Source of the DNA: Nageia nagi
Taxonomy: Eukaryota; Plantae; Pinophyta
Assembly (NCBI GenBank): GCA_050084985.1
Contig: JBITNC010000001.1
Location: forward strand, 15,624,001 to 15,688,000
Reading direction: 5' to 3'
Length of the DNA stretch: 64,000 bases
A program made the translations under genes and the position numbers. Below are positions 19,841 to 64,000 of this stretch, in pieces; within the stretch, counting starts at the first letter, position 1, and every line of letters starts with the position of its first letter. The notes below the pieces were generated by a model. That model had not been told where the DNA came from and made no database searches. It was given only the letters and a program-made list of their open reading frames with translations.

Positions 19841-20369
19841 GGGAATGATGTGAGGATCCAAAACTATCCTCAATGAATAACAATCAACACTAGGGTTTCT
19901 GAACCCTCAAACACCAAACGGCCACACCATGCAACCACAACCCCAATGATTGCCCTCTAGGGCACACAACAACTCCACAATACCAATGTGGGTCTTCCAA
20001 AGCCCCCACACCTCACACAACACCAAACAATGGCCACACAATGCTAACATCAGCCCTTAGGGCTTCTCCAACACCTTGCAAACCCTACGATTACTCCACA
20101 ACACAATTAAACAACACAAAAATACCAACAATGGGTATACAAAGTAATACATGACTGGAGAAGCAACAAATATCCTCAATGAGTTTCATCAAGGCTTCCT
20201 CAACGGACATTTCTCAAAATCTATGACAATGACAAGGTGTGATCATGACTGGCTTTGACCCTTGCTCTAATTCTATGACGTGCTCAAACCCCCTATGAGG
20301 TGGTAAACCCTTGGACATCTCTCCAAAAACGTTCTTGTGCTTGTCAAGGATGGTTTGGATCTCTTTTTG

Positions 20370-22740
20370 GTAGAAAAACGTGAAAATTTCCATAGGAATG
20401 AAAAATGCCTCCTATATTTTTGAGCACTCAAACTTGCTCAAATTTGAAAATTTCAAAGTTTAAAGTTGCTTAGAATTCCATTTTCCATGCAATGAAGGCA
20501 AAATTTTCGATTTTTGGGCAAACAATTATCAATCTTTTCATTCTAGGTGCTGATTTTCACTTCTATGGATTTCCAAAGGGTTGAAAAATTGCGCCAAGCA
20601 TTTTGAGGGTTTCCATGGCTCAAAATCGAAAATTTCAAGTGTTAAATGTGTTGGAAATGCCTTTTTCTATTCAATGAAGGGGTCCAAATTGATTTTTGAG
20701 TGAATTTGCACTTATTTCTCCAACTTAGGCGCTAATTTTCACTCCAATGGATTCTCCAATGGCATGAAAACCTGCACCTAGCTTCTAGAGGCCTTAAACT
20801 TTCTCAAAATCACTTTTTTGTAGACCTAAAGTGTTTTAAATGGCATTTTCCATGCTATGAAGTGCTCAAACTTGAATTTTGGACCAAATTTGTCAATTCA
20901 TGGCAACTTAGGCGCTAGATTTCACTCCTATGGATCTTCAATCAGCCCCAAATGTATGCCTAGGTATTTGAGCCTCTAAACTTGTTCAAAAATGAAAATT
21001 TGCAAGTTTAAACCTTCTCAAAATGACCTTTATGTATTAATGTCTCCAAATTTGATTTTTGATCAAAAATTATCAACTTTCCTCAACTTAGGCATTGATT
21101 TTCACTCCATTGGAATTCCATAGCCTTGAAAAGCAGCGCCTACCTTTTAGAAGGCTTAAAATTGCTCAAATTTGAAAAATTGTAGATCTAAACTTTCTCA
21201 AAATGCCTTTTTTCTTGTCCCCAAGCCTTTCAAACTTGTCTTTTGACAAAAATTTATCTTTTATCCTCATGCTAGGCACCAAAAATCACTTCATTGGATT
21301 TTCGTACAGCTGAAAACATGCGCCTAGCTTTTTGGGCCTCAAAACTTGCCCAAATTTGAAAAATTGAAGACCTAAATTTGCTTGAAATCACCATTTCCAT
21401 CAATTTATGCCTTTGGTTTGTCTTTTAATGAAAATTCATTTTTTTCCTCCAAGTTAGGCGCCAAAATGCAAGTCTATGGTTTTCCATTCACTTGAAAACT
21501 TGCGCCTAGGATTTTAGGGCACTTCCATTGGTCAAAATAAAAAATTTGTAGACCTAAAGTGCCTTGGAATGGGATTTTACATTCAATCAAACCATCTCCT
21601 TTGATTTTTGAGACAAATGACATTTTCCCCTTGGTAGCTAGGCACCAAAATACATCTCATTGGATTTCCATAGGCTTGGAAAACTGCACCTAGGCTTGGA
21701 GAGCTCAAAAACTTGGTCAAAATCAAAAATTTCAAGTTCTAATTGTGTTGGAATTAACCTTATCTCTCTGATGACGCTTTTAGACTTGATTTTCGACACC
21801 ATTTGCATTTATCTCCTAAAAAATTTTCATAATTTGCCTCTCTTGGGAGCTATTTGTCAAAACCTAGGCTCTGATATCACTAAAATACTCAAACTGTGCC
21901 CTCGGGCATACCTTGTGCATTCCTAACCCATATCCTCCATTTTTTGAGCTCGAACTTGATCAAATCTGCACTTTCCGTCATTTTCGGGCTCAAACTGTAC
22001 ATTTTCAATCATTCTCGGCATTTTTGAGCTCAAACTCTGAAAAAGAGTCATTTCCAGCATTTTCGATCAAAACTAAGCTTAAACTTTGAAAAATGATCTT
22101 TTCCGACATTTTCGACACTTTCGAGCTCAAACTCTACATTTCCAATCAAAATCGAACATTTATGTGCATTTCCAGTCAAAACTAAACTTTTCGAGCATTC
22201 TGAGCTCAACTTTGCATTTTCAACCATTTTCGAGCATTCTGAGCTCAACTTTGCATTTTCAACCATTTTCGAGCTTTTCGGGTCCAAACTGTGCAAAAAC
22301 ACACATTTTTACCATATTGACCATTTTCGAGCTCAAAATTGGCAAAAATGCACATTTTCGTCATACTCTCCATTTCGGAGCTTTTCAAGCTCAAACTTGA
22401 CCAAAATGACCATTTCTGCCACACTTGCCACTTCCGAGCTCAAAACTCTAAAAAATGACCCCATCTCCACTAACCTCACTCTAGACCCAAAAATTCATGC
22501 TTTGATACTCTCTCTCAGATCCTGACTCCTTGGCTCCAAAATCGATGATTGGATACTCAGATACTCTTCAAGGTCTTTGTCTCATGACCTCCTTGAATCG
22601 CTCCTTGACATCATGTTTGCACTCTTCAAAATGAACTATCCGTCGCCAAAAGCCAATCTTAAGGTAATAAACCTCATTGCCTTTGCAAAAATAGGGTCCC
22701 CAAAATCTTATATTTTGGGGTGTGTTGTGCAGGCACAACA
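20370..22740 (-). mobile_element. 5' part of a giant LTR-like unit (same family as 44572-48540) with ~183-bp tandem array
   Basis: Reverse-complement match to 44572-47060. Repeat motif recurs at ~20544, 20725, 20908, 21088, 21271, 21454 and 21638. Confidence 0.9.
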
Positions 22741-24029: not shown

Positions 24030-26443
24030 AAGAAGTTGCAACACACCAAAACACTATTGAACTACGATGCCATGAATACCATGCTACAATCCACCGACTC
24101 TTCTACATTGCCAAAAACTGAAATTGACCAAATCACATTGCACACAAACATTGAAACCTAAGCTACTAACTCCATTGAAGCTTTGTTGAAAACCCTAGGC
24201 AGATTTGTCTCTCAAAACTAAGGGATCAGCCTTTAGATCCGATCAAATAGCAAGGGCCATCACTTGTCTATCTGATTATGACTTCCTGAAGACACAAATC
24301 ATCACCAATCCTTGGAAAGAATGAGCAAGAATCAGCCTTGTCTCCACAAGAATCACATGGATCCTCAAATTCAATCTCCACATTGTTGACGAAGCAACAC
24401 CCCCTCTAATTTTTCAAAATTTTGGGACCCTCAGTCAAAGGATGACAATGGAACTTAGCAAGAGTGAAATCGCTTTGCAAAGCATAATGAAGACAAGCTA
24501 GCCAAATTAGCCCAAAGTGCAACTTTAAAATTCATCCAAAATACTTTCTTACAACAGATGAAGGAATACCTTCTAAGTATCCATGTAAGCGAAAACGAAG
24601 GAAATGCCAGTATCGGTTGAAGATCCAGTCATGTCTCAAAGAATGTGCAAAATCGCCCAATTTTCACATCAAAGGTGGTAATTACGTGGCTAAGGAGGAT
24701 ACATTTTTGTCCATTTTTAAGGCCGCCACCATAATTCATGCTTTCCTTCTAAAATTTCCGTCCCCTTTGATGACACTTGGCGCCTAAGAAGTTCTATAAA
24801 AGGCAAGAGGCTAAGACAAGAGCATTTGAGATTTGCCAAGGCAAAGGTGGTCACATATTTTTGAAAAGTCACCTTTCCATCTTCTAGAAAAGGTGCGACC
24901 ACCCCCTCTACACTATTTTGAGCATATAAATTGGCTGAGTATGCCCAAAGTCCACTCTCCAAGTTGGTCGCACGACTTGGAAATGCTACATTTGCATCTT
25001 TCTGGAAGGGTATGACCATGCTTTTTTGGCATTTAAGGTGCTTTCAGGGTCCCATTCGACCTCCATTTTGGCCATTTAACAGTGGACATGTGGCATGATA
25101 GACTAGTATAAAAGAAGAACAAAGTAATTTCATTTTTCTTTAGCTGGTCCAACGTGTTGCTCTAGGGTGGTCACCTGGTTGGCAAGAGTTAGAATCTCAT
25201 CTTTTTTTGAAGGTGCGACCACCCTCATTCCTGCATTTTGGTCTTCGAATTTGGCTAAGTGTTAGCCTAACACTCCTAAAAGTTGGTCGCATGGTTGGCA
25301 AAAGTTAGAGTTCCATCTTTTTTGAAGGTGTGACCACCCCTTTTGAGCACCTTTGAGTTGATTTGTTGGAAGTTGTTCATTTTGAGGCATCATCTGGCTT
25401 GGGTTGAAAGTGTTAAGTTTGCATCCCTTGGAAAGCATACGACCAGGCCCTTTTGTTTCATTCTTGACTAAGTGCTGAATTTTGGCACTCCTATCCTTGG
25501 TTGCATGGTTTGAAGGAGATACATTTGCATCTTTTGGAGAGATGCGACCACAACATGTTGCATGGAGCAGGACACTTGTTGAAAACCCTACCTTTGGCCA
25601 CCAAGGTATTGCCATTGGCAGTCAAGAAGGATATATGAGTGGGAGACTTAGTCAATTTAACATATCATATACCTTCCCAAGGCTGGTTGCATGGTTTTGT
25701 GAAACACATTCCCATCCTTTTAGGAATGTGTGACCACCTTTTTTTTTGTTTTTGCATTAAAGTCAAACAAACCCTATCCATTGGCCACCTTTTGGGTCAT
25801 TGAAATCTGCACTTCATTTTGCAACAACTACCTTAAGATTGTATGGTCACAAAGTCCCAAGAAGATAAGGATCCATCTTTTCAAAACCTTGCGCCCATTG
25901 GAATTCAAACTATAATTGAATTAGCATGGTCGCACGACCTATATGAGTCACATTTTCATCTTTGTCTTCCCATGCATTTGCATCTTTGAAGTCTCATTTT
26001 TAGGAAAGGGTCCCACAATTAGATGCTCATCCAAATTTGGTTTCATTTAGTTTAGTTATTTGTGTTTTTACATCGTCCCTTCATTTTGGTCATGTCCCAC
26101 AAGGTCAACCCCCACGTTTGGTCGCATCATCCATCCAGGTTGGAAAGCTAACATCCTTAAAGGGTGCAACCAAGCCCTTTTGTGAATTTACATGGGTCCC
26201 ATGAGTTAAAGATGTGCATACAGATTGATTGTTTAAAGCTCGTATTGTGGACGTTGCATGCAAATCAATCAACCACCTTTTTCATATGCATTAAGTTTCA
26301 AGTCTCACTTGCATAGTGCACTATCTGCTTCACCTTGAAAGGCATATAGGACTGCCAAGCATTATACCTCATACTCATACCATCCTATTGCATCTTCCAG
26401 TCTGTCCAATTCGTGCTAACTCAATTTTTTTTGTAGGATCAAC

Positions 26444-29400
26444 ATGTCAAAATCCAAATGGAGGAAGACTTGAGAACTTCAGTTAACAAGTTGACTGAAC
26501 CCACTCGGATCGAGTTCGCCAAAGAGAACTCCAAAGATCCCTTGAAAGAGGCCAAATTCAAGAATAATCTCTCCAACATTCGGGACACTTACTGGTCACA
26601 TACCGATTCTGTTCGAACCTTGCAATCCATCAGCATCCTAGAGAAGAACCAAATGCTCAACGAGGTCATTTGCACCTTTGGATTGGCCACAACCATCCTT
26701 ATTCCCTTTTCCACACCTTTTCCCAAGCTCTATTACAAAGTTGGCAGGCATGCCAATTATAAAACGTGTGCTCTTTATGACACGGATGGCAATAAGATCC
26801 TTGATTTCTCTCCGAAAGATATTGAGGAAGCTTTCAAGTGGAGCAATGAAGGGGTCATTTACATTGAAAGGGATTCCTAGGATTACTACGAGAAATCTCA
26901 ATGAGCCAGAGATCTCATCCGAGATTGGCTTGAGAATGAAAGCAAAGAATTCATTGGGAACAAATTAATCAATGCCAAGAGACAACATTTCTATCCCACG
27001 GTCTCAGTGATTATCGATATGTTGTCTCGGGTCACTGGCAAGGAGGACGACCCAAGTTCAAGAAGGAGTTCACCAGTTTCATTGTTGTGATCGAGAATAG
27101 ATAGAGGATCCGATGGAGCAAAGTAATCAGTGACTCCCTCCTCTAGCAATTGGCTCACATCGGTTCATCAAAGAGGTTCTATATGAATTCTTATCTTGTC
27201 TATCTCCTTCTCCATGGTAAGAATATAAAGTCGGCCCATGCAAATACAAAAAATTTGAAAGATCCAATGAAGCCTACATGGAAGGCTTATCCCAAATGGT
27301 GGCTAGAATCCAAGTGGGATCACTATGCCATGAGGAATGACGGATGGGAATACAAGATATACAAGGAGATAAAGGAAAGGCAAATGGTGAAAAGGATATC
27401 TGACTCTGCTGTAGAAGCCATTTAGGGGCATGCAGATTATTTCCTAGAAGACCCCTCACATACATATATTCAGGTCTACAGCTCCGATGTCAGGCCATAT
27501 CTCTTGCCTTGCAATGCCTGTAATCGGTTGATTCTCATGGAATTCTGCAAGCAATTGTTGTTTCTACATGAAAACATATGGAAAAAGAAGAATGCCACTA
27601 GAAACCTTCCCATTTCCATCGGGGAATATACCTGTTCAACTTGGCAAGAGGCTAAGGAGATGAGTACGAAATTGTCTTATTATCACTTCTCTGAGGAGCA
27701 AATAGTTCCTCATTATGATCCTGAAGGATGAATCCAGGTCTTCTACGAGAGAGCCTTCAGAAATCCAATGATTTATGAGCACAAGTCTCTGGGAGACACG
27801 GAGAGATACCGAAATAAAAGGGATGATAAGCAAATTCTGGAGATACATCAATTGCTAGCAATAGAAGGCCGGATTGATCGGAGAATATACAAATTCTGGG
27901 CCAATATGACCCCCATGTTGGCATGGTTGACTTGTTGACCCCAAAGTTGGAATAGACTTGGCTTGGGATGATATCGAGGCATGTTGGATAGACATGGGAG
28001 GCTACATATTGAGGATGGAGCTCCATGATGAGGTAGCTATTGATTATACTTCTATTACACTAAACCTGATCGGGCTTGCAAGTCTTGGTAGTGCCAAGCA
28101 TTCTTCTTAGGCAATGTCTAGAGGGATGACAAGGTTGGGAGCCTGACACTTTACGACTTAGGTGGGTCACCTAGTCCATCTGGTGGTATTCCGAGGGCGA
28201 GCTTCTACCTTCAATGGTTATCTAGGGTTCAAGGAGGCTCCTTCGCAGGAGAGGATTCAGAGTCTGAGGGAGTTGGTCTTTCCTGTGGTGTTCGACTTGT
28301 ACAAGGGTTTGGAACCCTAGATCTGGATATTGAGATCCTCATTGTATACCATTGCATATCAAAATATAATCCATCTCATTATGTCTCTCTCCATTGTGTT
28401 GTTCATTGATGTGTATGTGTTGTCTCTTGTATACTGGTGTTGTCCATTGTGTTGTGTTCATATCTATGAGGCATTCGTTGAGGTGCCAAGTGTTGCTATG
28501 TGCCCTAGAGGGTTGACATCATGGTGTAGGGGTTGCGTGGAGGCCTTGGGAGGCTCACGTCTGCATTTTGGGGTGTTAGTGTGCCCTAGGGTCCCAACGT
28601 AGGTGTTTTAGCTTCATTTGTTGAGGGGTTGAGTTGCATAGTTGGTCTATTGTACTGGAGTGATTTTAGATCTTCACAAGTCTGAAGCCGAAGCAGCCAG
28701 AGAAACTTTACCAACCGAATCAGCATCCAAGAAGCAGGTTGCTTCTTTTGAATCCACTACTCCAAGGAGGAAGAGGAGGTCATCCCCTAAGAAGGAAGCA
28801 CCCAGGGAAACTCCCGGCAAACCCTCAAAGTTGAGCAAAACTTCGATAGCAGGGAGTAGTGGAGGAGATGAGGAAGAAAAGGGTGAAGACGAAGAATAAA
28901 GGAAGAAGAGGAAGCAATTGGAACATGGAAGCCACAAACCATTGAGGATCAAAGATAGGCCGGATGAGGTTAAGAACCAACAGCTAAGAATCGAGGAGAT
29001 CCCTAGAGACTCCACTCCCACAAAAACCGATACCACTTTGTCCATTATTGAATCAAGTGCTGGTCCACAAAAGAAATATGATTTTGATATTGATGCAGTC
29101 ATCAAGGATTTGCAGATGAGCTATTGTAGTGATGATGAAGAATCTAGCTAGAGGAGGGAAAATGCTTTTGAGGAGACCCCATTGAAGAACTCAACACCTT
29201 CGTGTCTATGAAAAAAGACACGGTGACCATCAACAAGTGCTACTCGAAAAAGAAGCATCCACAAGACCTTCAAGATGTGCGGGTCCACACTGAAGAATTC
29301 AAAGTTAGGAAGATTGGATGGGCCAGGTGCAAACATGCCATTAACTATAATGTGGATGAGATGGTCAATCAAGGCATCGAAAAGGAGACTATGACGAAGA

Positions 29401-30163
29401 AGCTGAAGGAGCTCGCTGGTAAAAACAAGCTGGTGAAGGAGATAGAAATCGCCAAAATGTCTTCTGAAGACATCAAATTTCAGGCCTCCCTGAACATTAG
29501 TATCACCTCAACCAAAGAGACCTTGGTCAATGGCATAATGAGAGTGGTCAATGAACTCTCACTTTGATTGATTGCCCTCACCAATAAGTAGAAAGCAGAA
29601 GAAAACACGATTGCAACCATCTCCTAGTTACTGCAGGATTTCCAAAACCATGAGCAGACCATCTAGAATCTGAAAGTAATGTTTGCAGGGCAAAAAGGTA
29701 GGATACAATTCTACCAAGAATTTGCCTATCACCTACGTTGGCTGAGGTTTGTAGCAGCAAAATGTGACAATTTAACTCAGGCTAGGACCAATTTGTCATG
29801 TACCCTAACCTTCCAGATGAGCCAAATCAGGTTTATGAATGAAGATGGTAGTGTAAGGAGGGTTGAACTCGTGATTCAAGAAGTCCAGAATGCCATCTGA
29901 GAGCTTATCTTCACCAAGGACGTGAACCTGTTGAGATCGGGGACACATTGAGAACCAACAACATTTGGTCGTCTAGAGATTCCAGATGGAATGCACTTCT
30001 CAGTACATCTTGGATTTTCACAATAAGAAAGATAATGACTTGCCAGGAGTACTTGTTGCAGGGCTCGCCTAAGCTAGAGCCTTCTTTGATGATAGGTCTC
30101 ATAGGATTCCCAATTATGTCTTCGATGTTGCTCACAGTTTAGCTTCCGGTCCCATGGAGGGTT
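26444..30163 (+). pseudogene. Degenerate accessory ORF of unknown function (copy 1), interrupted by an LTR fragment
   Basis: ORF pieces 26458-26880, 27150-27425, 27504-27731, 29202-29567 and 29679-29900 are colinear with 37607-34154 (DFSP..IEEAF.W, GSSKRFYM.SYLV.LLLHGK, CYSK.KHPQ). Confidence 0.8.
27900..28678 (+). mobile_element. 5'-truncated family B-like LTR nested in the ORF
   Basis: Contains the family core ccatctggtggtattccgagg..ctacc and ends gatcttcaCA; the ORF resumes immediately after. Confidence 0.75.
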
Positions 30164-31350
30164 GATTGTTATATGCATATTTTTATTTTTCAGTTCAAAG
30201 ACAATTATTATTTTAACTTGCACTGTGATGGATGAGTTTTTGCTCCCACAGTCGCAAGAAGACTTGATGTGATGTGACATTGATGTGAGATTCGAGTAAT
30301 ATTGTGTAGCCGCAATTTTGCTTTGATGGTTTATGTTTTTCAAAGTAGTATTAGAGTTGTTTCGTTGTTTAGGGAAACATTGCAATTAATATTAGGGTGA
30401 CGCTTCATTTAAAGAGGTTGTTAGACATGTTATAAGAACCCTAGCTGGGTCATTTTTGAAAGAGGGAGGAGAATAGAAAGAAAGAGATATAGATGAAAGA
30501 ATCCTTCAATGTATGAAAGTTGCATGATCTTTTGGAAGGAGTCTTTTTTTGTAGTTGAAGTTTCTGCATGTATGTATGGTCTATCATTTTGGGAATCTCT
30601 GTTGTTAAATGCAAGTGCAGTTCTTCATTTCATGGAGCTATAGAGACGTGAATGACATGATGATGATGTTGTGTTGTTTATGCATTTACAAGCACTTTCT
30701 TTGAAAGTTTTGCACTTTAGGAAAAGATAGTTGAATATCTCTCTTAAATGTATGAATGACCATCTCTATGGTTTGCATAAAGTTGTGGTATTTCGAATTA
30801 CTTTACTCTTATGACATTTGGTTGGAATTTTCTATTGGGACATAGAGAATGGAACATTTCACTTCACCCTTTTTTTCCACCTTGACTACTGCCCCGTGCT
30901 CTTGCTTGGGAGTGATTCGAACCCAATTGCTTCTTTCCATGCTTGATAACCTGAGTAAAAGTTCCTAATAAATCTGAGAGATGAAAGCTTCGAACCTTGC
31001 ACAACGGTAAGACCTTGCCACTTATCCTTCTTTCAACTACCAAATCTTTCGTATCCCGTTTTATATTCCCTCTGCTTTGTGTGTTTTTCATGTGCACAAT
31101 GATTGAGATAAAGCCCTATAAGTCCGCATAATTGTGAGTAACCATCCCCGAGCACATGCCTCCCCTTGAAGCTATCTTGTCGACTGTCAATCGCCATTGC
31201 TTAGAGTGTGCTATACTAAAAAACAAAAGCCTATAATAATTTGAAAAAACCTTGGGGTTAAAGTCCTTTCAAGTGGAGGTAAGTAATGCTACTCCACTCA
31301 TCGACGGTGTCCTTTTCCGCCGGGGGAATGAAACTCATGTCAACACACAT

Positions 31351-31641
31351 ATAATATAACATAATACGAAATAAGACACAAAACCCTCTTATAGAGCCTT
31401 AGGTTCTAATTTTGTGTTGACACTTCACTAGGCATCCATCATCACTTAAGTCTTCATTTTATAAATAACATATGAAATAAACTAATATTATGTTTTCTAA
31501 CACATTACCCTTATAACCCTTTCTGTTAATTTTTATTATTTTATTTATTTCTCACCCCAAAACCATAAAATATAAAACTCCACAATACACACCACATCAC
31601 ACTTAGGTACAATGCTAAAATTAAAAAATGGGGACATTACA
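31351..31641 (-). mobile_element. LTR 5' end (TGTAATGTCCCCA type); host of the 24384-31345 insertion, probably continuing in 24030-24383
   Basis: tggggacattaca ending at 31641 is the reverse complement of the LTR start at 18398. Confidence 0.6.
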
Positions 31642-32280
31642 AACCGCATCTTGAAAAGAAACCTAAATGGCTGAATAAAGGCAAGAAGAAATCAGCCAAT
31701 GTATGTCAAGAAGATGAGGATTGTATTGGCACTATAGAGATTGAAGAGAAGTTAGCTTGTATGGCCAAGCGAGGGCTAGTTTCAGAGGAAACTAAAGAAG
31801 AGTTGTTTTGAGTGTATATCCAAATTAAGATGAGAAAGGTAGTTGCATTGTATGATTTTGGATCATAGAGAAATCTTCAGAAAAAAATAGTACAGTAGTT
31901 GCAAAACCTCATCCTCAACCTTATCCATTGGAATGTTTGCAAAAAGATGTTGAGATGCAAGTTACTGAACAATGCACCTTAAAATTTGGTATTGATGAGA
32001 AAATTAAAGATGAGGTAACTTGTGATATTGTGCTTTTGGATATATGTCAAGTTGTTTTTGGCAGCCCATATTTGTGGGAAAGAGATGCTACATTTTACAA
32101 AAGGTTGAACCAGTGGAGGTTGGTGAAAAATGGGAAAGGATTCAGAATTCATTTTATAAAGGTTAGAAAAAGTTTCAGTTGGTAATTGCTCAATAGACAA
32201 AGGGATTGGTGAATGCTAGTAAGAGGTTTGTGCTTCTCATGGTGAGAGCTGGGGGAGAGATGAAGAAGTTGCTCTAGGAA
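31642..32280 (+). mobile_element. Ty3/gypsy gag-protease fragment
   Basis: VALYDFGS*RNL (degenerate DSG), KPHPQPYPL, EVTCDIV..DICQVVFGSPYLWERDA. Confidence 0.85.
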
Positions 32281-34153
32281 TTCCTAGTTATGCATCTACA
32301 ATCAATAAACTCAAAATTGAGACCTTAAACCTTGGACCCCTAAAGAAATACAGCTTTATTGATTTTTTCAAACATCTTCTTGGGGATTGTTTTGAAATGT
32401 AGTGGAAAGCAATGACCCGCAACAAAACGAGAGGCATATGTCTTACTAAATTGTGATTTGGAAGGAAGCTTTAAATACAAGTACATTATATATAAATATT
32501 ATATAGATTTTGTCACCTTTATGGAAAAAAAGAAACTTGGAAGAGCACCTTTAGGGGCATTGAAGATTATAACTGTAATTTTACTAAAGGCCAAGTTCAA
32601 CCACTATCTAACAAGCTTGAAAAGTTGAATGTGTCCATCTAATTGGTTGTATGAAAAGCAATATAGCCATCTAAGTGAGGGAGTGAGGAGGACTATGCCA
32701 TAAAAATAAGCAATATAGCAACAAGACATGGCGTATGGTGCTACTATTTGTTGGTATGTTTTCTTTCCTTGCCCAAAACATGTGCAAGACTTGGAGGAAA
32801 AAACGCTACTTGTTTCCGCCAAAAAGAACTGGTTACCCCAAGTGCTCACATGGAATATGGTCTTTAAGGCTCAGTAGCCAGAGATGCATGTGTTAACCGT
32901 ATACAAGGGAAATACACTCCGAAGTTCCTTTCCACACCGAGGAAAGATTGCAAATGTGAACAAAAGCGAAGAAAGATCACAAATGAAGGGACAAACACAG
33001 GGATAAATGCAAGGGAACACGAGGAAAGAAAATAACTTGTGAAGGTATTACTAGGGATACAGTGTCTCGGTAGGTCATCTTCAGATTCATTAAGGTTGAA
33101 GCACCCACTATCAAGCCAGGTAACAAATAGCAAATACACTCAAATCACTACCAGACAAGAGCGAAAAGCTGTAGGGTCTTGGTGGAAGAGGTATAAATGA
33201 GGTGAAGGTGCGAGTGCAAGAACCTAACCGAATGATATAAAGATAAGCTATAAGCTTCAAAATATATCCGCTTACGTGCAAATCAAGCAAAGAAGAAACA
33301 AACCATTTCAAATGAATATTCAATATGCAGTTCAAGGAGAGAATTGTGTAGATATACATAATCCCACAGATAATGTTCGTCACAAGATGAACTTTATTGT
33401 CTCATTCCTCTAAAGAAGCACTCATATTGGCATTCAATAATAAACATGCATAGAACCCCTTATACAACGAACCTCTATGCAATGGGATGTGAGTACAATA
33501 GATGCAACGGCTCAAAATTATTACATTCATAAAAACTCATTGCTAGAATTTTAGAGATGCAAGAACCCCAATATATGATATTTACATTAAATGCAGAGTC
33601 ATACATATGCAACAATGCATAAAATCATGCTACAATGCAAATGAAAAATTATAGGTTTCCTCCTATGTGAATGTCTCATATGCAAAACTCCAATGCAAAA
33701 ATTCCTTATGTCAAAATCCCCCTCTAAATGGCCCGAATGGATTATAAATAGGCCACTAGAAGTGTTGCCCTAAAGGCATCAAATCTGATATGGTACGCAC
33801 ACATGCAACACACATACCAACACAAAGTCAGATCACCTACATGAATCGATGCAAGTGGCACTTTAAAGTCTAACAAAATATAAATGCCACATCTAACATG
33901 CATTTAATCTACCTCTAAACTACTCAGAAGTAAATTGAATATGCAATAAACGAGTTTGACACCTGAACCGACAGGAGCAAAACCTCATCCCTACACCAGT
34001 CAGAGCCATAAATGAGTCTGACTGATTTGATCTGGTGGGAGCAAAAACTCATCCATACACCAGTCAAATCAAGTGAAATAAAGTTTGACATAACAACGAA
34101 CATTAATTAAAAGACATGATATCGTAGATAAAATCCATGGGTGGATTAGACCT

Positions 34154-37100
34154 AGGCTAGATCTGATCCGATACTGGCGGAGATCCACTCCTCGTTGGTG
34201 AGACCGTATGACTCAATGGTCTCCTCCAAGAATGTCACAATCTTCCGCATGCCCCTGGAGATCATGCCAACAGTGCTGCCATTCTGCCGGAAATAATTCT
34301 CAATTTTCTTTGACGTGGCCTACATCTAGTGTCTCCAGACGATCATCCACCTCTTATGGATGATGGGATGCTTTGCCTTTAGCAAGCTGAGATCATCAAC
34401 ATCAAGATGCACTTGAATCAGATTTTGAGCCTCTGTCAATACCGCCTCCTTTCTAACGTTGTTGTGCTCTCATTGGAACTTGAGTTGATAAACATACTCA
34501 TTCATTTGTTCCTCAACCTCCTTTCTCAAGGGGATCCTGATTTTCAGGACTGCGTTGCACTTTTCAAGTGTGTGGTTCAACCAATCATGATGGTACGTGA
34601 ACTCGTGGCCGTAGACTAATTTTTCAGGATTGTCAACATAAATGTGCTGCAGATGCGAGATGTTGGGAAGGTAAGTATCCAACGTGCCAAGCTGAGATAC
34701 GTGCCTTGAGGTCTTTGATTTCAACAACTTCAGCAAGGAGCTTGTAGATTTGCGAAGACAATCTCTTGATGGCCTCCATCACTTCCTCCTTAAGTTGTTC
34801 ATCAGTTATCATCCTTCATGGAAGGATGTTTGCCTCTACAGATCTAAGGGGGTGGTGCTAATTTTCTAGAATTATTTGATGATTTTCCTGCTAGCCGTGA
34901 GTTCCTTCTTCAACCTCTTCACCTCCTTTTTGGCTTTGTAGCCTTCCTGCTTAATGACTGCAGCATTCTGCGTGACTATGTGCTTTCTGGCTATCAACCC
35001 TAGATTCACAGGCATCTTGAATATCTCAATGACATAGTCCTCCACTCTCTGAGGGTGTTTCTCCTTCGAATAACAATGACTGATGGAGATTTCTTTTCTA
35101 GAAGTGGAGACAAAAGTGTCAACCCTTCGAATCTTCTCATCGTCTAAGAGTTCTTCTTCCTCATCCTCAGAGCATAGGTCCTCATCTATATCTTCATCAT
35201 GAGCCGTGCTCATGTTGAGGGCTCTAAGGTAGGCATCCAAGTCAAGATCTGGATGCTCGGTTGTTGGCTGAGGAGAAAATCTCTGAACCAACAACCATCC
35301 TTTGTCAATTTTCTTGACCTCTTTTGCTGGAGTAGTCTGAATTATGGTGATCTCTTTACCTTGGTGCTCTTCATGCCTTCTTTTCTCCTTCTGCTCCGGA
35401 GTCTCTCCTTCATCTTCTTCATCTCCTCCATTTCCGCCTATAGATATACCCTTTTCCGCAGCTGGGGAGATCTCTCATGGCTCATCCTCTTTGTGGAAGA
35501 CTTATGTGACGTGGAAGGGGACTTCTTTCTATGCTCGGAAGGAGAGGATTTGGAGGCACCTGCTTCTTTGGCACACTTCTCTCTGATTATCTGGATGTCA
35601 TCATCATAAGTACCAACGTTCACTATCTCATCATCCGAGATAGTTTCAACTTCTGTTTCATCAGGTGCTACGGCACCTACAGCTACATCCTCCTGCTTAG
35701 GATACTAGTAGCATTATCAACATCATCATCATCTTCTTCTTCTCTTCTGCCATGGCTTTCTGATTCTTCTCCAGAATCTTCCACTCTACGACCAGGCTCT
35801 TCGTCAATCTCTTCATCAGAAGAAGTGGAATATTCAAAATTGGAACTTGAACTTGCTTGTAAACGGGGGACTTTCTCCTTGCATCCAGGAGAATGAGTAT
35901 CCGAGGGGAGAGCATGATAGCCAGCGTCTTTGAGGTCAGCCACCACCATGCTGCACTTGCTAGGACCTAGGATGGGTTCTCTCAAAGCCTCTTGCCTCTT
36001 TCTTGCAGAAAGCAAGAGTGTTTTTCCCAGTAGAGATGTAGTATGGGCAGGAGAAGGGGACTTGATTCCGAAAGAGACCTCCTTATCTAGGCTTTGTTGT
36101 TCGAAGTCTTTGGCGTGGCTTTTCTAGTTGGAGAGGATTCTTCTTCTTGCTCAAAAGAGCATCTATTCGTGCAATCTCCCCTTCATCCCGCATGTTCCTA
36201 TACCTCTCTTCATTCCCCAAAGGCTTATGCGGAAATGCAATCGGCTTGTGGAATGCAGTATCATAGAGATGTGCGATTATGCTCTTAGGATCATAATTTC
36301 TTGCAGCAGCTTCCTTGAAAAAGTTGTATTGCCGCAATTCCTCCTTCTTATTGGTTGCCTCAACCCATGTCTAGCACACATACTTGGATATGGAGATAGG
36401 CAAATTGATAGTAGCGTTCTTCTTCTTCCAGATCTTTTCCTTCAAGAACAGGAGTTTCCTGGCAAACTCCATGAGAATCAAGCTATCACTGACATATCTT
36501 GGCAGGAGTAGGGGTTGCTCCTCTGAGCCATAGAATTTGATATATGTATGGTCAACATTTTGCAGATGAAATCTGCATGTACGCTGATAGCTTGAATAGC
36601 CACATCAGAAATTTTCTTCACAACGGACTCCCCCTTGATATCCTTGTAGATATCGTATTCCCAATGATCAGTCCTCTCATAGAAACACTGGAACTTGTTT
36701 TGGTACCACCACCTCTGATAAGATCTCCACACAGGGACTTTCTTTTGCCCCAAGTACCTTTCATTAGCTAACTCCTTGGATCTGACTTTACCATGCAACA
36801 ACAGGTGCACAAGATAAGAGTCCATATAGAATCTCTTCGAGGAGCCAAAATAGGCTAACTGATGGCGTAGGGCATCACTGATTACCCCAGCCCATCGAAT
36901 AGGTTTTCTCGAGCTGATGACTGCAATGAAGCCCATGAACTCCCTCCTATACTTGACATCATTTTCCTGACCAGTCACCCTTGATAGAAGAGTGATCAAC
37001 TTTGCCACAACAGGCAGAAACTCCTCTCTCCATGCGTTGATCAAACTCGGACCTTGAAGGTTTTGATAATCCTCTAACAACCAAGGCCGAATGTAATCCC

Positions 37101-37607
37101 CAGGTCGAGTTGTGGAATTATGGAACTCCTTAGAATACGTCAATGTGTAATCGTCCCCATATCTTCTCCAGCAGAAGGCTTCTTCGATTCCAGCAGGGGA
37201 AAAATCCATGATCATGTTACCCTCTGTGTCCCACAGGACCCTTTTGTCATATTCACACTTCCTAGCTACCTCACTACATAGGTTAGGAAAAGGTACTACA
37301 AATGGCATCATAGCGGCATTGAAGAAGCCGCTTCTGTGGATGAGCTCTTTCAATAAGTCCTCTTTGCTGATGGAGGACGTGGAGGCTAACATCTGGATGG
37401 GGTCCAAGTTTCCCCAATTTGTGTCACCAACAAAAATATTCTCCCCTTGAACTTGGCTTCAGGGAGCTCTAGTCTCTCTTTCTCCTGAAATTCAATCAGG
37501 TTTTCTTTCAAAAGTCGGGTCATCTGGCCTTTAGTTACATGTCTTTCAAACAACTGGCCCTTTACCTTCCTGGCCCTCAATGGAGGTGCTCTAATGCCGG
37601 AAGCCAT
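34154..37607 (-). pseudogene. Accessory ORF copy 2, best preserved, ~1150 codons with several frameshifts/stops
   Basis: MASGIRAPPL.. start at 37607; 309-aa open segment 36478-37407; acidic/Ser-rich linker ~35100-36000; C-terminal helical-looking part. Confidence 0.82.
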
Positions 37608-38619
37608 GCAAGAATATAGAGTTAGGCTTGGAGGACACCTAACATACAATGAGAATTGCTTTCCCTTTTTATATGAGATGCATGGAGGGTGGATGCATGG
37701 TAGGGCACATGCTTGCCATTTTTCTCCTTCTCCTCTCAACTCCTAGCCTCCCACACTTGACCTGTTTCAGCTTACAATCCCGAGCGCACAGTTCTTGATG
37801 ATTGCAAAAGCATAGCTTGAAAAGCATGCAACTGGGCCTGGGGTCACTTAGTCAAATTTTGGAACATCCTTCTTCACCTCAATTCTGGGCACATGGATCT
37901 GGATAAGTGCTTGAGCATAGCCTTGAAAGCATGTGACTAGGTTTAGGGAAAAGACTGAAATGCCTTAGCCGAAAAAAGGCTACCTGGGTGCACAATGTCC
38001 CCCAAAACTTCTTCTCTTACTGGTCGCATGGTTTGGAATGAGTGCAAAAGCATGCATGGGAAATGGTGCGATTGAAAGGGGTGGTAAAATCTGAAGTGAA
38101 GTGGTTGAAATGACTAAGGGGTGAGGTGATATTTATAAATTCCTGCACTGCCACGTGTCACCTCTGGGTTGGCAAACCTAGGGTCAAATGATGGAGCAAG
38201 GACAAGGGTGCATGGTTTTTGATGGGTTCAAAAGCTCATGATGAAAAGCATGCGACTAGTCTTCCGGGTACTTAGCCAAATTCCAAGCTAATGTTGAAGT
38301 TCAACCCTTGGTCGCACCGTTCTGGAAGGGTGCTAAAGCATGCCTCTTAATCCTTGCGCCTGGGGTTTGGCATGCTTCTCAAGACCAAAATTTCCAAAAA
38401 TGGCTTGAAAAATGCAAGCTTGTTCTAGGTTGCACGTTTTGGAAGGGGCGCTTTTCTCCCTTTTTCCCATGCTCTGCTCCAGACAAGTTTGCAAACTGAA
38501 ATAATGGGGCTGACTTCCTTTTAATAGCCCTCCAGGTAGGAAAGGTGTCGCCATGTGATAGGTGCGGAAAAAGGCCCAATGCATGAGTTCCCACTTGTCA
38601 ACAAATGGGGCCTAACACT

Positions 38620-39300
38620 TAGCCAATTTTCCCTTCATGGATCTGGTTGCATGGTTTCGGATGGGTGCAAAAGGACTCATTCAAAAATGTGCGACAAGCC
38701 TTGGTTGCTTCGAAAATGGCTAAGTCCCTTTCCTTCTCGTTGCATGGGTCTGGATGGGTGCAAAAGGACCTATTCAAAAGCATGTGACTACCTTTTGTGA
38801 CTTCAAGAAAATGACTAAGTATGAAACTCATCATGGTTGCACCATTTTGAGTGAGTGCAAAAGGACTCACTCAAAAACGTGCGACAACTCTTCATAGTCC
38901 CCAAAAATGGCTAAGTATGAGCTTTTTCTTCTTCGTCGCACTGTTTTAGGTGAGTGCAAAAGGACTCACTCGAAAACATGCGACAGCCTTCCATGCAACA
39001 AAAAATGCTAAGTATGAAGGGGCATTCACCTTGGTCACATCCTTTTGAATGAGTGCAGAAAGGACTTGCCGAAAAACATGCGACAAGCTGAAAAGACCTG
39101 ATTTTTCCTTGTATTTTGACCAAAATGATACACATAAGAAATGCAAAAGAAAGGATGACGAATCCCTACAGGACAAAGACCTCCAAAGTGCCATTCTCCA
39201 ACATGAAATGCAAAGGACAATGATGAAAACGCTGAAAGGGATTGGTCGCATGGTTTGAAAGGAGTGCAAAAGCACTCACTGGAAAACATGCGACAAGCTG
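38620..39300. repeat. Array of ~50-bp imperfect palindromes, ~95-bp period
   Basis: GTCGCA..TTTT..GTGAGT-GCAAAAGG-ACTCAC..AAAA..TGCGAC, about six copies. Confidence 0.85.
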
Positions 39301-40490
39301 AAGTATGCAACTGTCTTGACTTGACCATGATAATGTAGTTAAAACATGTTTCCTAGAGTTAGACCAAACATACGCATTCCCTTTTGAATAATTTCTTCCA
39401 TGCACTTCTAGTTGTTACTATTTCGAGGGTCCTCAAAATGCAGAAATTTTGAGGGGTGTTGTGCATGCACAACAATATCTTCAACCAAAAATTCAACCAC
39501 TATCTAATTGGTTTTTACCATAGTTGGACAAATCATTTGCTTTCTAAAACTGGCCAACAATTGTCTCTTAGAGCCTCATGATAGCAATGCTAAAAATATT
39601 TGAGATGCGAATATCATGAGTTATTTGGAACAGCAGGACCTAGGCACTATGTTAAAGACCTTTTCAAAGTCTATAATGCAGAAAAATTCTATAGAAGATC
39701 ATTTCCAGGCATCCTTGATCTAGTCAACGAGTAAAATGTGATCAATAAATTTTTCTCTGTTTGCTACAGGTCTAGAAATGACCTGGTGAAATAACACATT
39801 ACGTGATAATGATGACATTGTTTGATAAGCTGAAACTATAGAACTCTTAGTAATTTTCAAGTTTCAATATAAAGCAACATTAAAGTGTTTTTTATCTTTG
39901 ACCCCTCAATCAAAATAACAGTTAAGAAAATGAGGTTCATGTAATTCTAATTTCATGTTTCTTTCCCACTAATTTTTTTTTGGAAGGGTAATGCAGTAAA
40001 ATGAAATTTATGTCCTAAATTACTGCCTTTACAATCCTAATGATTTGGTAGATGATGATTTGGAAAATTAATGTTTACAGTTTATTTATATGGTTTGCTA
40101 AGTTAATTTTAATGAATTTACACGTGTATGTGCAAATTCCATAGATGATTACTTAAAGAATTGATTTTTCTTTATATGCCTCGTTAAGTTAGTTTTTATT
40201 TATTTACGCTTATATCCTTCATCTTTGAATGAGAAAGTTTGTGTATTTTGCATAACAATCCCTTAATATTCTGTGGTGAAGGACATGCTTGTAAATGTTA
40301 AATGGCCACACTTTATGGTTCTTAGAAGAGAAAAGACATGTAGAAGCCACTTAATATTTTTTGCTACTTGTTTTCATTGAATGAATGCCACAGAAAGATG
40401 ACAATAATTTTAAGTATGAATGATTACTTTCATTTGATGTTGCTTGCCATAATATTTTCCAATGGCGTAACCTCATGAATTGTAACACAG

Positions 40491-44571: not shown

Positions 44572-47500
44572 TGTTGTGCCCGCACAACACACCCCAAAAT
44601 ACAAGATTTTGGGGACCCTATTTTTGCAAAGGCAATGAGGAGCATTGCCTTGAGATTGGCTTTGGGTGATGGATAGTTCATTCTGAAGAGTGCAAACGTG
44701 ATATCAAGGAGCGATTCAAGGAGATCTTGCGACAAAGGCGCTGAAGAGTATTAAAGTATCCAGTCACCAATTTTGCAGCCAAGGAGCTAGGATCTAAGAA
44801 AGAATATTAGAGTACAGATTTTTGGTCTAGAGTGCAAGAAGTGGAGATGGGGTCGTTTCTTCAGATTTTTAAGCTCACAAGTGCCGAGTGTGATGAAAAT
44901 GAGCATTTTTGCAGTGTTCAAGTCCGGGAGTAGTGGATGCAGCTAAGATGACAAAAACAAGTGTTTTTGTCAAGTATGAGTCCGAAAAGCTCAAAAATGG
45001 TCATTATCATGAAAAGACGCATTTTGGTCGATTTTGAGCCTGGAAGAGGTTAGTATAGTAAAGATGTGCTTTTTCGCACCATTTGAGCCCAGAAAGCTCG
45101 AAAATAGTCAAAAATGCAAAGTTGAGTTCAAAATGATCGTTTTTTCAGACTTAAGGCCTGAAAATGATAGACAATGACAAGTTTGAGTTTGAAAAGGCAA
45201 AAATGGTCATTTTTGCATCATTTGAAATCGGAAATCATTGAAAATACAAAGTTTGAGTTCGAAGATGCCGAAAGTGGCATTTTGGTCGAGTTTGAGCTCG
45301 AAAATGTTGGAAATGGATGAAAATGCACAGATTGAGTCCGGGATGGCCTTGAAATGCACGTTTGAGTACCCCTAGCCCTAGGTACATTTTCCCAAGGTAT
45401 TGAAGACCCAAACGAGGGGAAAATGGTGCGTGTTTTTCAAAGATAAATGCAAATGGTGTCAGAATTCAAGTCCAAGAGCTTCATTGGAGAGATAAGATGA
45501 ATTCTATCACAATTAAGACTTGAAATTTTTGATTTTGACCAAGTATAAGGCACTCAAATCCTAGGCCCAGTTTTTCCAGCCTATGGGAAAACCATAGAAA
45601 TGATTTTTGGCACCTAGATGGTGGAGGAAAAGTGGAAATGCATAGAAATTCAAATGTGAATGCATAGATGGATGGAAGAGGTGATTTTAAGGCACTTTAG
45701 GTCTTCATTTTTTCAAGTTTGAACAAGTTTAGACCCCCAAATTCCTAGGCGCAAGTTTCCAAATGATTTCAAATCCAATGGGATGAATTTCGGTGCCTAG
45801 ATTGACAAGATGAAGTGTTTTTTGCTCAAAAAAACATGTTTAGATGCTTGGGAACAAGGAAGAGACCATTCTAAGCACATTTAATACTCAAAATTTTCAA
45901 TTTTGAGCACTTTTGAGCATCCTAAAGGCTAGGCGCAGCTTTGGGGAGCTATGGAAATCCATTGAAGTGAAAAATGGCACCTAAAATGAAACATTTGACA
46001 AAATTTGGTCAAAATCAAGTTTGAGGTGTCCATTAAGTGAAATTTGGCATTTTGAACACTTTTAGGTCTTGGAAATATCAATTTTGAGCATGTTTTGAGG
46101 CCCAAAATGCTAGGCGCAGGTTTGCAAGGCTATGGAAATCCAATGGGATGAATTTTGGTGCCTACCATGAGGAAAAAAGATAAATTTTGAACAAAACTCA
46201 ATTTTGAAGGTTTGAGAGCAAGGAAAAAGGCATTCCAAGGCACCTTAGGTTTACAAAATTTCATTTTAGAACAAGGGAAATGCCCCAAAGGGTTTAAACG
46301 CATGTTTTTATGCCAATGGGATTCCAATCAAGTGAATTTTAGCGCCTAAGTCAAGGAGGGAGATCGATTTTTGATTAAAAACCAAATTTGGAGGCATAAA
46401 TGGATGAAAGACCGCATTTCAAGCATATTTAAACTTGCAAATTTTCATTTTTGAGAAAGTTTGGGGGCAAAAATATCTAGGCACAGGTTTGGGGCTCATT
46501 GAAGATTCATAGGACTGAATTTTGGCACCTAAGGTGGAAAAATTTGATAAATTTCACTCAAAAATCGAGTTGGACCCTTTCATTGCATAGAAAAGGGCAT
46601 TTCTAGCACATTTAACACTTGAAATTTTTGATTTTGGGCCATGGAAACCCTTCAAAAAAGAAGGCACAGATTTTCATGCCATTGGGAATCCATAGACTTG
46701 AAAATTGGTGCCTAACATGGGAGAATGTGAAGATTTTTTCCAAAAATCAAATTTTTTTGACATATTTGCGAGGAAAATGCCATTTTGAACATATTTAATA
46801 CTTCAAATTTTCAATTTTGAGCAACTTAAAGGAACCAAAAGCTAGGCATAGTTTTCCAAGTGTATGGAATTCCAATGAGATGAAAACTAGTGCCTAACTT
46901 GAAGAGGAACATCAAATTTTGCTCAAAATTCAAAATTTTTGCCTTCATTGCATGTAAAATGACATTCTAAGCATCTTTAAACTTTGAAAATTTTGAATTT
47001 GAGCAAGTTAAAGGGCCCAAAAATCTAGGAGGCATTTCTCATTCCTATGGAAATTTCACTTTTTATCTTTCGAAATCCATAGACATGAAAATGGAAAAAA
47101 TTGTCAAAAACTTCAAATCTTTCCCAAAACCTTCTAAAAGCCCCAAAACTTCTCAAAAATTCCCAAGTACCTTGTAATCCTATCCTCCATCCATCCATAA
47201 GCTCAAATCCACTTTTTGAAAAATTTCCAAATTTTGGACCTCCCTATCTTTTTCAAAAAATAGACCCAAAAATCCACTTTTTCGAAAAACTCTTAGAATT
47301 CCCTGAAAATTTGCCACAATGATCACCAAACAGGAAAATCCAAATTCAAAGAAAGGAGCTTAAAAGAATACCAGAAGGATCCAGAATGAAGATTTGAAGC
47401 TCCAATTTTTTACAAATTGATGCAAAATGCCTCGAAATACATGGCAGAGGGCATCAATTTTTTGTAAATATTTTATTTTTAGCATATTTTAGTGGGATAA

Positions 47501-48540
47501 GATTGTTCTTCCACTAAAATGATATGGTAATCTCAATTTAGCATTCAAATTAGCATTTTAAAGCTTTTTTAAGAATTAAGGCAACACCCTCAAATTTTGA
47601 CCTAAAAAGTTTATAAATAGACCATAGGGGGTCACATTTTGAGGTAGAATGTTGTAGTCAAAGAAATTTCTAATTTTTTCAAAATTGAAATTTTTTGCAA
47701 TTGAGGAGCAAATTGATGTACTTGTGCAAAACTCTTTTGTAAACATAATACAAATGGCTACAAGTTGATTTAAAGTGTGTTTTCATCTATGGGAGTGGTG
47801 GATTGATATTTTTAGAGCAATTTCTATAATTTGAATAGTTTTGTGCCTTGTCTTTGAAAACTCTCAAATTTTAAGAGAACTTATTGCAAAATTTTCTAAA
47901 ATGTTTGAATTGTCTTAAATTGTTGCTAATTCATCACTTGCTTGTTAAATGTTTCATATTCTGAATTGACTTTCTCTTAAGATATCTTCATAGATTTTTT
48001 GTTCAAAACTATCCACCTTCACTCACATTTAGTCCACTTGATTGCATCGATCCTATTCACAGAGTACCGACAACTAGTCTTGCTTCTCACTCATCTTTGA
48101 AATTATTGGACAATAGTTCATTTCAAAGACTTGATTGAATTGAACAAGATTTCTTAACCTATCCGAGAGAAAGAACATTTAGACAATGTTGCATTGTGAT
48201 TACCTCTTTGAAGTCTAGCCAGTATTCGACCTCATTCTCACTTTTTCTTTTCTTTAAAACATATGGCAACTTTCGAACTATTGTAAGATAAAATACCTCA
48301 GTCCCTACAAAAAATGTGAGTTAACAGTTATTACCTCTACTACACCACTCAGCTGATTTTCAAACAAGACCTACCAATTTAAAGCTCGTATTAACGACAC
48401 GAGTTTTCTGATAGAAACCTTAGGGTATCAGTCCTTACAAGCAGAGTTCAGTAACGCGTTCTCACCTACATGCTGGGTCGCTTTCCCCTCTTGATCGTAT
48501 AGGCGATCCCTGAGTAAGAGGAAAGGTTTCCTTCCCAACA
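44572..48540 (+). mobile_element. 3969-bp TSD-bounded giant solo-LTR-like unit, non-coding
   Basis: agtgt|TGTTG...CCCAACA|agtgt; TATAAAT at 47612; ~183-bp array at 45400-47060. Confidence 0.93.
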
Positions 48541-57460: not shown

Positions 57461-58328
57461 TGTTGGGAAGGAAATCTTTCCTTTAACTAAGATTGTCAAA
57501 AAAACGATAAATGCGAAAGCAACCCAGCATTCAGGTGAGATAGTGTTACCTATCCCCTCTTGTAAGGATTGATACTCCAAGGTTTCTATATTCAAAGTTG
57601 CAAAAATGCAAGTTCAATTTTAATAGCTTAGTAACTCTTGTTTAGGAATCAACTCAATGTTGTAATAGAGGTAAAGGAAGTTAACTCACATTTTTATAGC
57701 GTATTGAGGTGCTTTTATGCAAAGACTGAAAGTTGTTTTGATCTTCTAAAGAAAGTTAAAAAGAAAGCAAGAAAAGAAAAAGTAAACAAATAAATGAGAG
57801 TGTTTCAACACAATGCTGGTTAGGTTTCAAAGTGACTACCATAATGAAGCATTGTCTAAACTTCTTTCTTTTTGTATCAATTAAGAGAGTTTCATTCAAT
57901 TCATCAAGATTGAAATAAATGACTATTATCCAAGTTATTTCAAACAAGAGTGAAGAGAGAAGCTAACTGTCGGTACTCCTTTTATAAGACCGATTGGTAA
58001 TCAAAAGAACTTAGCGAAGAATGCATGAACTGAATTGTTTCGAGTGAAACTTCTTATTAGATGGCATAGAAAGTAAGCAAATTCAAAATACATTCATTTA
58101 GCATGCAAGCCATGGAAAAAGCAACTATCTTAAGATGATTCAAACATTTTGAAATATTTTCAACAAAAATTTCCTAAAACTTGAGTTTTCAAGGAAAAGG
58201 TGCAAAAATATTCAAACCACAAAAGAAAGCTCAAAAGGTTCAATTCAACAACTTCATAGATGATAGATCAACTTTTGCTCAATATGTCACCACTTTGCAT
58301 TAGCTTGTAAAAAGAGTTGTTACAAACA
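57461..58328 (-). mobile_element. 3' (R-U5-like) part of the 44572-48540 family
   Basis: tgttgggaaggaaa is the reverse complement of the 48540 end; 58100-58320 matches 47720-47950. Confidence 0.8.
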
Positions 58329-62559: not shown

Positions 62560-64000
62560 GTGTTCAAATGCTGAAGGTAGAGAACCCATAGGGAAGAGGA
62601 GGGTCGGGCGCTTGCTTTCAGGTGCATGCTTTTGCACTTGTCCCAAAAGGTGCAACCAAGATATAGAGCTTTCAAGTATGATGGAAATTGACTAAGTCCT
62701 TTTCGTCCACCAAGGTTGATAGGCACATGCATTCCGGGACATGCTTTTCCACTCATTCAAAACCGTGCACCCATCATCCTGGCGCCACCATTTGATCTCA
62801 CTACTAGCCAACCAGAGGGTGACATGTGGCAAGCTTGGAGACTATAAATATCAAGTCACCCCTTAATCATTTTCACCACTTCATTTCAAGTTTGCATTGA
62901 GCTCCCCAGTCACACCATTTCAGGAACATGCTTGAGCTCTCATTCGAATCGGTGCGCCAGGGAGGAATAAAGGATCAAAGGCATGCATGTGCAACTAGTT
63001 AGCCATTTTTGACTAAGACATTTCACTTTTGAACATGAAAGTCTGAGGCGCTTGCTTTGTAGCACATGCTTAATCACTCATCCAAATCCATGCGCCCCTG
63101 TGTGAAGTGATGAATTGGCCTTCCAAGAAGAAATTGTGGCCTTGAAATTGACTAAGTGACCCAAGGATCTAGTCGCATGTTTTCTAAGCAGTGGAAAAGC
63201 ACACATCCAAAATTGTACGCCCTGGGGTCAGAGACTAAAATTGTTTAAGTGTGAGAAGCTAGGAGTTGAAAAGTCAAGAAGACAAGTGGCAGACATGCAT
63301 CATACCATGCATAGACCCTCCATGCATCTCCTATAAAAGAGGGCAGCCCTAATCCATTTCTGCAAGATGTTTTGCAACCCAGACCTGCACGTTTAGCCAT
63401 TTTCAACTGCACCCTTTGAAGCATCCAACTTGATACTTGGTCATTTCTGGGGCATTCCTAGCCATTTTAGTCCTTTTTTTGCAAAGTTTTTAGAATTCAA
63501 AGATGACTTCCAAAGTAAGACCGCCCCCATTAAAGGCCAAGAAAACCTAGGGGCAGCTTTTTGAAAGACATGATTGTCACCAGAGATCAGATGACAAGGC
63601 TCCTAAGGGAGAGCAAAATAGAATTTCAAGAAAGAGAAAGACCAAAGCTCCCTGAAGCCAAATTCAAGGAGATACGTCTTTGTTGGAAACACAGACTGGG
63701 GAAATGTTGACCCCATCCAGACCATAGGCTCCACTGCCTCCATCAACAAGGAAGATCTATTAGATGAACTCATCCACTCATGTGGATTGTTCAATGCCAC
63801 CATGATAGCTTTTGCAGTTTCGTTTCCTAACTTGTGCTACGAGGTAGCAAAGCGATGTAAATATGACAAGAGTCCTCCTGGACATAGAGGGAAATGTGAT
63901 CATGGACTTCTTCCCCAAAGGAATGAAGTAGCCTCTAGTTGGAAAAGATACGAGGAAGATTATACATTGGCCAATTCAGAAGAATCCCATGATTCCACTT
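62560..64000 (+). mobile_element. Third ORF-bearing unit (close relative of 32749-39474), ORF start 63503, truncated by window end
   Basis: MTSKVRPPPLKAKK..QLFERH..QMTRLL.E..IEFQE.ER..LPEAKFK..VGNTDWGNVDPIQ; upstream sequence matches the reverse complement of ~37610-38350. Confidence 0.88.

Follow-up and report, generated by a model that had tools for sequence, protein, structure and literature searches.

What kind of element carries a long gene of its own between the ends of a long terminal repeat (LTR)? The question is raised by a 64,000-nucleotide stretch of the conifer Nageia nagi (assembly GCA_050084985.1, contig JBITNC010000001.1, positions 15,624,001 to 15,688,000, forward strand; hereafter the window), in which two units of about 7 kb each hold a motif array, a decayed open reading frame (ORF) and promoter-like motifs. 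With a probability of roughly 0.65, the units are solo LTRs; the parent lineage would be a Gypsy-type retrotransposon of cupressophyte conifers, with an unusually long U3 region that carries an accessory gene. This is the best reading, on indirect evidence: integrase-type ends with a target-site duplication (TSD), a putative LTR-type promoter that is correctly placed and oriented, an ORF that was under selection and the recurrence of one layout in copies that have diverged; ORF-less relatives on the same scaffold were also counted toward it. The initial annotation had proposed a lineage of retrotransposons whose U3 holds a gene in sense orientation, and this interpretation is supported in part; no copy linked to a primer-binding site (PBS), a polypurine tract (PPT) or gag-pol was found. 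The parts of the two units are as follows.

24384..31345, plus strand: unit 1, 6,962 nt, bounded by TG...CA, a likely solo LTR
24848..26172, plus strand: motif array of unit 1, 53-54-bp units about 100-275 nt apart, between inverted half-sites TGGTCGCA ... TGCGACCA
26444..30072, plus strand: decayed ORF of unit 1, with helical N-domain, acidic linker and helical C-part
28050..28650, edges approximate: foreign repeat insert in the unit 1 ORF, matching 7111-7329 and 23349-23554, with a depth spike in bins 27708-28909
30231..30460, plus strand: post-ORF motifs of unit 1, GATGAGTTTTTGCTCCC, AGGGTGACGCTT and TATA-N-GGTCATTT, the inferred main LTR promoter
32749..39474, minus strand: unit 2, 6,726 nt, with the layout of unit 1
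33727..34053, minus strand: post-ORF motifs and inferred main promoter of unit 2, TATA at 33746
34152..37607, minus strand: decayed ORF of unit 2, 1,152-codon span, N-domain weakly VANC21-like by prediction
37663..37673, minus strand: ORF-proximal TATA box TATAAAAAGGG of unit 2, 66 nt ahead of the ATG
37885..39296, minus strand: motif array of unit 2, 54-55-bp inverted half-site units

Termini and relatives of the units

Unit 1 starts with TGTTGAC, ends with GTCAACA and lies between perfect copies of the TSD CACAT (24379-24383 and 31346-31350); its coordinates, ends and TSD hold as first annotated. The relative at 44572-48540 (r44), described there as non-coding and TSD-bounded, is flanked by AGTGT/AGTGT (5/5). 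Among random position pairs, agreement at 5/5 positions arises by chance in 0.16% and at no fewer than 3/5 (at least 3/5) in 12%. Unit 2 does repeat the layout in inverted orientation, as had been claimed, but its flanks (CTATT/ATATC) agree at just 3/5 positions and its 3' end was set by homology instead. At 32749 contig depth drops from 843-3,127 to 1.7-11 in four of four runs (summed depth, not copy number), and the homology of a metagenome contig, L002, stops at the 3' terminus of unit 2 with unrelated sequence beyond it; these two observations identify the terminus as a family boundary.

The first 57-59 nt of units 1 and 2, r44 and the truncated relative r22 could be aligned with 80% mean column identity. 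The terminal inverted repeats of the units measure only 5-7 bp. The terminal hairpins noted earlier were confirmed in part: a 5' double hairpin is significant against shuffles in unit 2 (z -4.3) and r44 (z -4.9), but not in unit 1 (z -0.3), and none of the four 3' ends that were folded clearly beats shuffles (z +0.3 to -1.75).

The units were screened for the internal parts of a retrotransposon using repeat comparison, PBS motifs and, as crude probes, the gag/pol pieces of the window itself. The two terminal 1.5-kb segments of each unit share no direct repeat, tblastn with the gag/pol pieces returned no match under E 0.05, and no second LTR start, repeat pair, PBS, PPT or gag/pol trace was detected inside them, in agreement with the earlier statement that gag, pol, PBS and an LTR pair are missing. 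A loose end at 31351 resembles the left flank of unit 1 in about 25/30 letters with gaps (by eye, unscored), hinting at the empty site; within the window no empty-site homologue was found.

The relatives recognized in the window are listed here; r59 is absent from the initial annotation.

20365..22740, minus strand: r22, truncated 5' part of r44 type, starting at 22740
44572..48540, plus strand: r44, ORF-less relative, 3,969 nt, TSD AGTGT/AGTGT, shared 5' signature and TATA position, array of about 183 bp
57461..58318, minus strand: r57, 3' part of r44 type
59755..60857, plus strand: r59, 3' part of a further relative, with shared post-ORF motifs, a unit-2-like end and no ORF upstream
62560..64000, plus strand: copy 3, partial, unit-2 type, with array, TATA and ORF start at 63503, continuing past the window end

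Copy 3 had been annotated as a third partial copy, and its 68-72% match to unit 2 bears this out, though its 5' terminus is not in the window. A 61-bp tandem duplication (22732-22854) spans the 5' junction of r22, and the purine tract nearby belongs to another LTR.

Outside the window, a metagenome scan confirmed 2/220 candidates. The start of L002 (7-76) matches the ORF reversed (36390-36459), suggesting a second head-to-head copy or an assembly join. Viral contigs contained no relative of the ORF and 0 matches to the 5' pattern; an 18-nt 3' pattern had 20 matches there, none sharing more than 21 nt with the window. A scan of prokaryote genomes gave no relative. Four sequencing runs contained a small share of the sequence, and no RNA run was among the matches listed.

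The decayed gene and the array upstream of it

From ATG to stop the ORF spans 1,152 codons in unit 2, 1,188 in L002 and 1,209 in unit 1, the last figure being enlarged by a foreign repeat insert of 0.6-0.75 kb. No frame stays free of stops for more than 326 codons in unit 2 or 147 codons in unit 1, and the gene is a pseudogene, broken in every copy seen. The earlier description of a gene of about 1100 codons is accurate as to length, with the qualification that all copies have decayed. In the encoded protein a conserved N-domain, some 480 residues long, would be joined through an acidic linker to a helical C-part. Between units 1 and 2 the N-domain shows 40-52% amino-acid identity, and the DNA elsewhere is little alike. 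Values of dN/dS were 0.08-0.14 for the N-domain, 0.08-0.21 for the C-part and 0.31-0.48 for the linker, compared with 0.68-0.80 for non-coding segments handled identically; one further comparison gave 0.60 and was short and uninformative. Judged from these ratios, the ORF was once under purifying selection.

Phmmer recovered 68 relatives at E<=0.001, the longest of 488 aa and none of them named; an intact copy of about 1,100 aa was not among them, and the absence of long homologues from the protein search is weak evidence. None of 43 aligned members matched the Pfam profiles PMD, ATHILA or Transposase_32 at E<=0.1, and Pfam gave no Tr28 match either. In the ESM Atlas, P0030 had no usable match to named clusters, and leads of only 0.84 pointed to clusters of PF03078 and PF20167 (ATHILA, Transposase_32). 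A search of PDB by sequence profile yielded nothing under E 0.8, and Foldseek against PDB and BFVD yielded no match. The predicted fold of the N-domain shows a weak full-domain match to VANC21 (PDB 9lnk; 4-8% identity), a DNA-binding anti-silencing protein and the sole full-domain structural match.

In both units the array lies upstream of the gene. Unit 1 contains 15 half-sites (0.54 in shuffles), with 8/9 pairings at 53-54 nt, and unit 2 contains 11 (0.48 in shuffles), with 7/11 pairings at 54-55 nt. Half-sites are not enriched elsewhere, a single strict one occurring in each of copy 3 and r44. Another half-site-like array (58340-59560), nearest to that of unit 1 read on the minus strand and with no ORF, sits between two truncated, oppositely oriented relatives. 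The r44 family bears a different, degenerate array of about 183 bp (45400-47100; 20365-21820) on the same terminal scaffold; a gene provided in trans might have this array as its target.

Promoter placement and the origin of the units

TATA-like sites at 30431 (plus), 33746 (minus) and 47612 (plus) lie 0.9-1.0 kb from the 3' ends of unit 1, unit 2 and r44, essentially where they had been annotated. When six 3' parts were compared, five included a shared post-ORF motif, in each case 0.95-1.02 kb from the end, and several pairs of the six had no alignable DNA. The motif TATA-N8-16-GG(T/C)CATTT is directed to the 3' end in 3/3 complete units and has the same sense in the PBS-linked LTR at 18398-19378; it occurs five times against 0.9 expected, a post hoc count. 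A multiple alignment of the promoter region placed this control LTR poorly. A TATA upstream of the ATG is clear in unit 2, copy 3 and L002 and unclear in unit 1. Every solo LTR had been claimed to leave a complete promoter and gene cassette, which is true only of the layout, every copy seen being broken.

In the region 18398-19832 the LTR of about 980 bp, which bears the TATA-GGTCATTT promoter motif, is accompanied by a Met PBS and by a frame resembling gag; the LTR and the 3' part of unit 2 share a weak 54-nt match (E 0.001). A reversed orientation, with a 1-kb U3 and the ORF antisense in U5, was considered on account of TATAAATA on the opposite strand of unit 2, and was rejected since TATA-GGTCATTT points alike in all three units and in the PBS-linked LTR.

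Several observations weigh against solo LTRs. A PBS was found at 0/6 3' ends and a PPT at 0/4 5' ends, so that 0/10 termini are linked to either; with unit 2 counted as solo, the chance of this is about 5e-5 at the solo:complete ratio of 0.18 given for Picea (PMC5751070) and about 0.2 at the ratios of 4.3-5.5 given for Torreya and Taxus (PMC10006428, PMC9364684). These termini would suit a mobile element of 4-7 kb that exists as a single unit without a partner LTR and is copied or moved whole, the enzyme acting in trans being an integrase of Gypsy type or a DDE enzyme of unknown kind. Pointing the same way are the VANDAL-like combination of gene and array aboard and the terminal double hairpin, which is conserved and has a change in stem 2 that looks compensatory; among the loose ends listed none showed a PBS at 32749, which is uninformative in that contigs break at repeat ends. 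Such an element is nevertheless unlikely. There is no known route by which a lone LTR without PBS and PPT could prime reverse transcription, the inverted repeats extend over only 5-7 bp, a PBS-linked LTR has the promoter motif too, and high solo ratios are reported for related conifers.

The units might instead have arisen by deletion or recombination from ordinary Tat elements with an internal extra ORF (eORF), either TatII with its 5'F/3'F ORFs or TatIII with its antisense PMD ORF. Gymnosperm TatII elements are described with sense eORFs (23% 5'F, 26% 3'F; PMC6317226), and the eORFs of TatIII/Ogre have a similar architecture, in which PMD may be accompanied by a coiled coil (PMC4408406). This origin predicts that the ORF would be followed by a second LTR start and PPT, or preceded by an LTR end and PBS, and neither was found; moreover, unit 1, unit 2 and L002 agree in layout and spacing despite 30-60% protein divergence. 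Since there is no inner LTR start or PBS and divergent copies share one layout, an origin by chance deletion is disfavoured and we regard it as improbable. The initial annotation had named such deletions, or termini absent from other copies, as the outcome that would tell against its proposal; in fact the 3' end is found again in L002 and two further copies in the window.

Mutator-like elements (MULEs) typically have TSDs of about 9 bp. A non-autonomous VANDAL-like MULE with a vanC gene would explain the VANC-like fold and the motif array together, yet both clean cases (unit 1 and r44) have a TSD of exactly 5 bp, the ends are TG...CA and a putative LTR-type promoter stands at the 3' end, which makes it very improbable.

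If the units are solo LTRs, their history and function may be pictured as follows. A full element, LTR-PBS-gag-pol-PPT-LTR, would have inserted first, and recombination between its 6-7-kb LTRs would have left a single LTR between the original TSD copies. Each unit would begin with U3 (array and gene), followed by the main promoter and then by R-U5 of about 1 kb. The TATA lying about 1 kb short of the 3' end would serve as the main promoter of the element, and the TATA before the ATG would drive the accessory gene, whether in one of the paired LTRs or in a solo LTR. The product, putatively of PMD/VANC fold and probably acting in dimeric form, would bind the inverted half-sites spaced by 54 bp in the U3 that encodes it, and would protect the neighbouring promoter from silencing by the host, in the way that VANC protects VANDAL DNA transposons.

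Given the solo-LTR reading, this binding and anti-silencing role of the protein is put forward tentatively and is less likely than not. The fuller proposal, an LTR-borne anti-silencing system in which a VANC-fold gene, its own promoter and its binding array form a solo cassette that de-silences cognate copies in trans, is doubtful. Somewhat short of an even chance, as a part of the probability given to solo LTRs, is that the gene served otherwise, for example as a transcription activator or as a helper of integration or nuclear import, and that the array is a U3 enhancer bound by the host. The fold score is weak and a common fold proves no function, r44 has an array without the gene, and the function of plant eORFs is called unknown in a review (PMC7264820). 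To be set against this are the full-domain match being to a DNA-binding anti-silencing protein and to nothing else, and the fixed-spacing inverted array immediately upstream.

Genomic setting and known systems

The window spans part of a conifer gene encoding a chloroplast ascorbate/anion transporter, whose best named relatives are in Araucaria (67%), Taxus (60%) and Picea (52%), a ranking that favours a cupressophyte host over one of the pine family. Its exons are at 3183, 4787-5365, 5697-5828, 40479-40646, 53045-53260 and 55953-56171, and its third intron, of 34.6 kb, houses units 1 and 2. The same intron contains a near-complete Copia element (8883-17004; LTRs 96.8% alike, decayed pol) with a Met PBS at 9393, a PPT ahead of 16501 and a 110 bp x 4 tandem array in its 3' region (15611-16049). 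Tandem units of 30/60 bp directly follow r44 (48739-49218), and an intronic fragment (51105-51562) gave a weak Armadillo match (E 0.015), resembling a piece of importin-alpha. Rfam had 0 matches across 24000-49000.

LTRs are commonly regarded as non-coding. A search of the open-licence literature, with Repbase outside its scope, returned nothing relevant on an ORF inside a plant LTR, and as far as searched giant gene-bearing LTR-like units are undescribed. The main plant survey (the REXdb search) accepted LTRs of up to 6,000 bp (PMC6317226), so a lineage with gene-bearing LTRs of 6.5-7 kb would escape it. What the extra ORFs of plant retrotransposons do is an old open question (PMC7264820), and a VANC-like fold beside a fixed-spacing array offers a directly testable pair of protein and DNA target. 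If the proposal is true, solo-LTR formation, usually viewed as clean-up by the host, would leave the giant genomes of conifers with active pro-transposon genes, and a VANC-like system would exist in a retrotransposon, tying retrotransposon eORFs structurally to VANC.

Among known systems, the Ogre/Tat (OTA) Ty3/gypsy elements share the 5-bp TSD, very long LTRs (1.9-6.5 kb in Ogre; PMC6431247), repeat arrays and an accessory ORF with conserved N-domain and helical C-part (PMC6317226; PMC4408406; PMC6431247). Their eORF products combine a coiled coil with PMD or Tr28 (PMC4408406), and the eORFs are described up- or downstream of gag-pol (PMC6317226; PMC4408406), in line with a review that places additional ORFs (aORFs) in the internal region (PMC7264820), whereas here the ORF lies within a terminus-to-terminus unit. 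Grande gene23 and Retand TRP28 are likewise accessory genes with their own promoter, adjoining tandem arrays and with a proposed nuclear DNA-binding role, but they are antisense, between pol and a short 3' LTR (315-1,194 bp in Retand; PMC7264820; PMC11963269).

Coding sequence in U3 is familiar from retroviruses, in MMTV sag and lentiviral nef, where the gene also lies within the LTR and in each LTR copy. The gene described here differs in belonging to a probable plant retrotransposon, in being several-fold longer, in having its own TATA and in specifying an unrelated protein.

VANC binds short motifs arrayed in its own element and brings about hypomethylation of that element (PMC5735166; PMC12844716). 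The VANC genes of VANDAL MULEs resemble the present gene in their accompanying short-motif array and, weakly, in the predicted fold over the full domain (PMC5735166; PDB 9lnk); they differ in that the carrier here is LTR-like and not a MULE, that identity is 4-8% and that the array consists of fixed-spacing inverted half-sites. The units behave like a solo LTR and may act like VANC.

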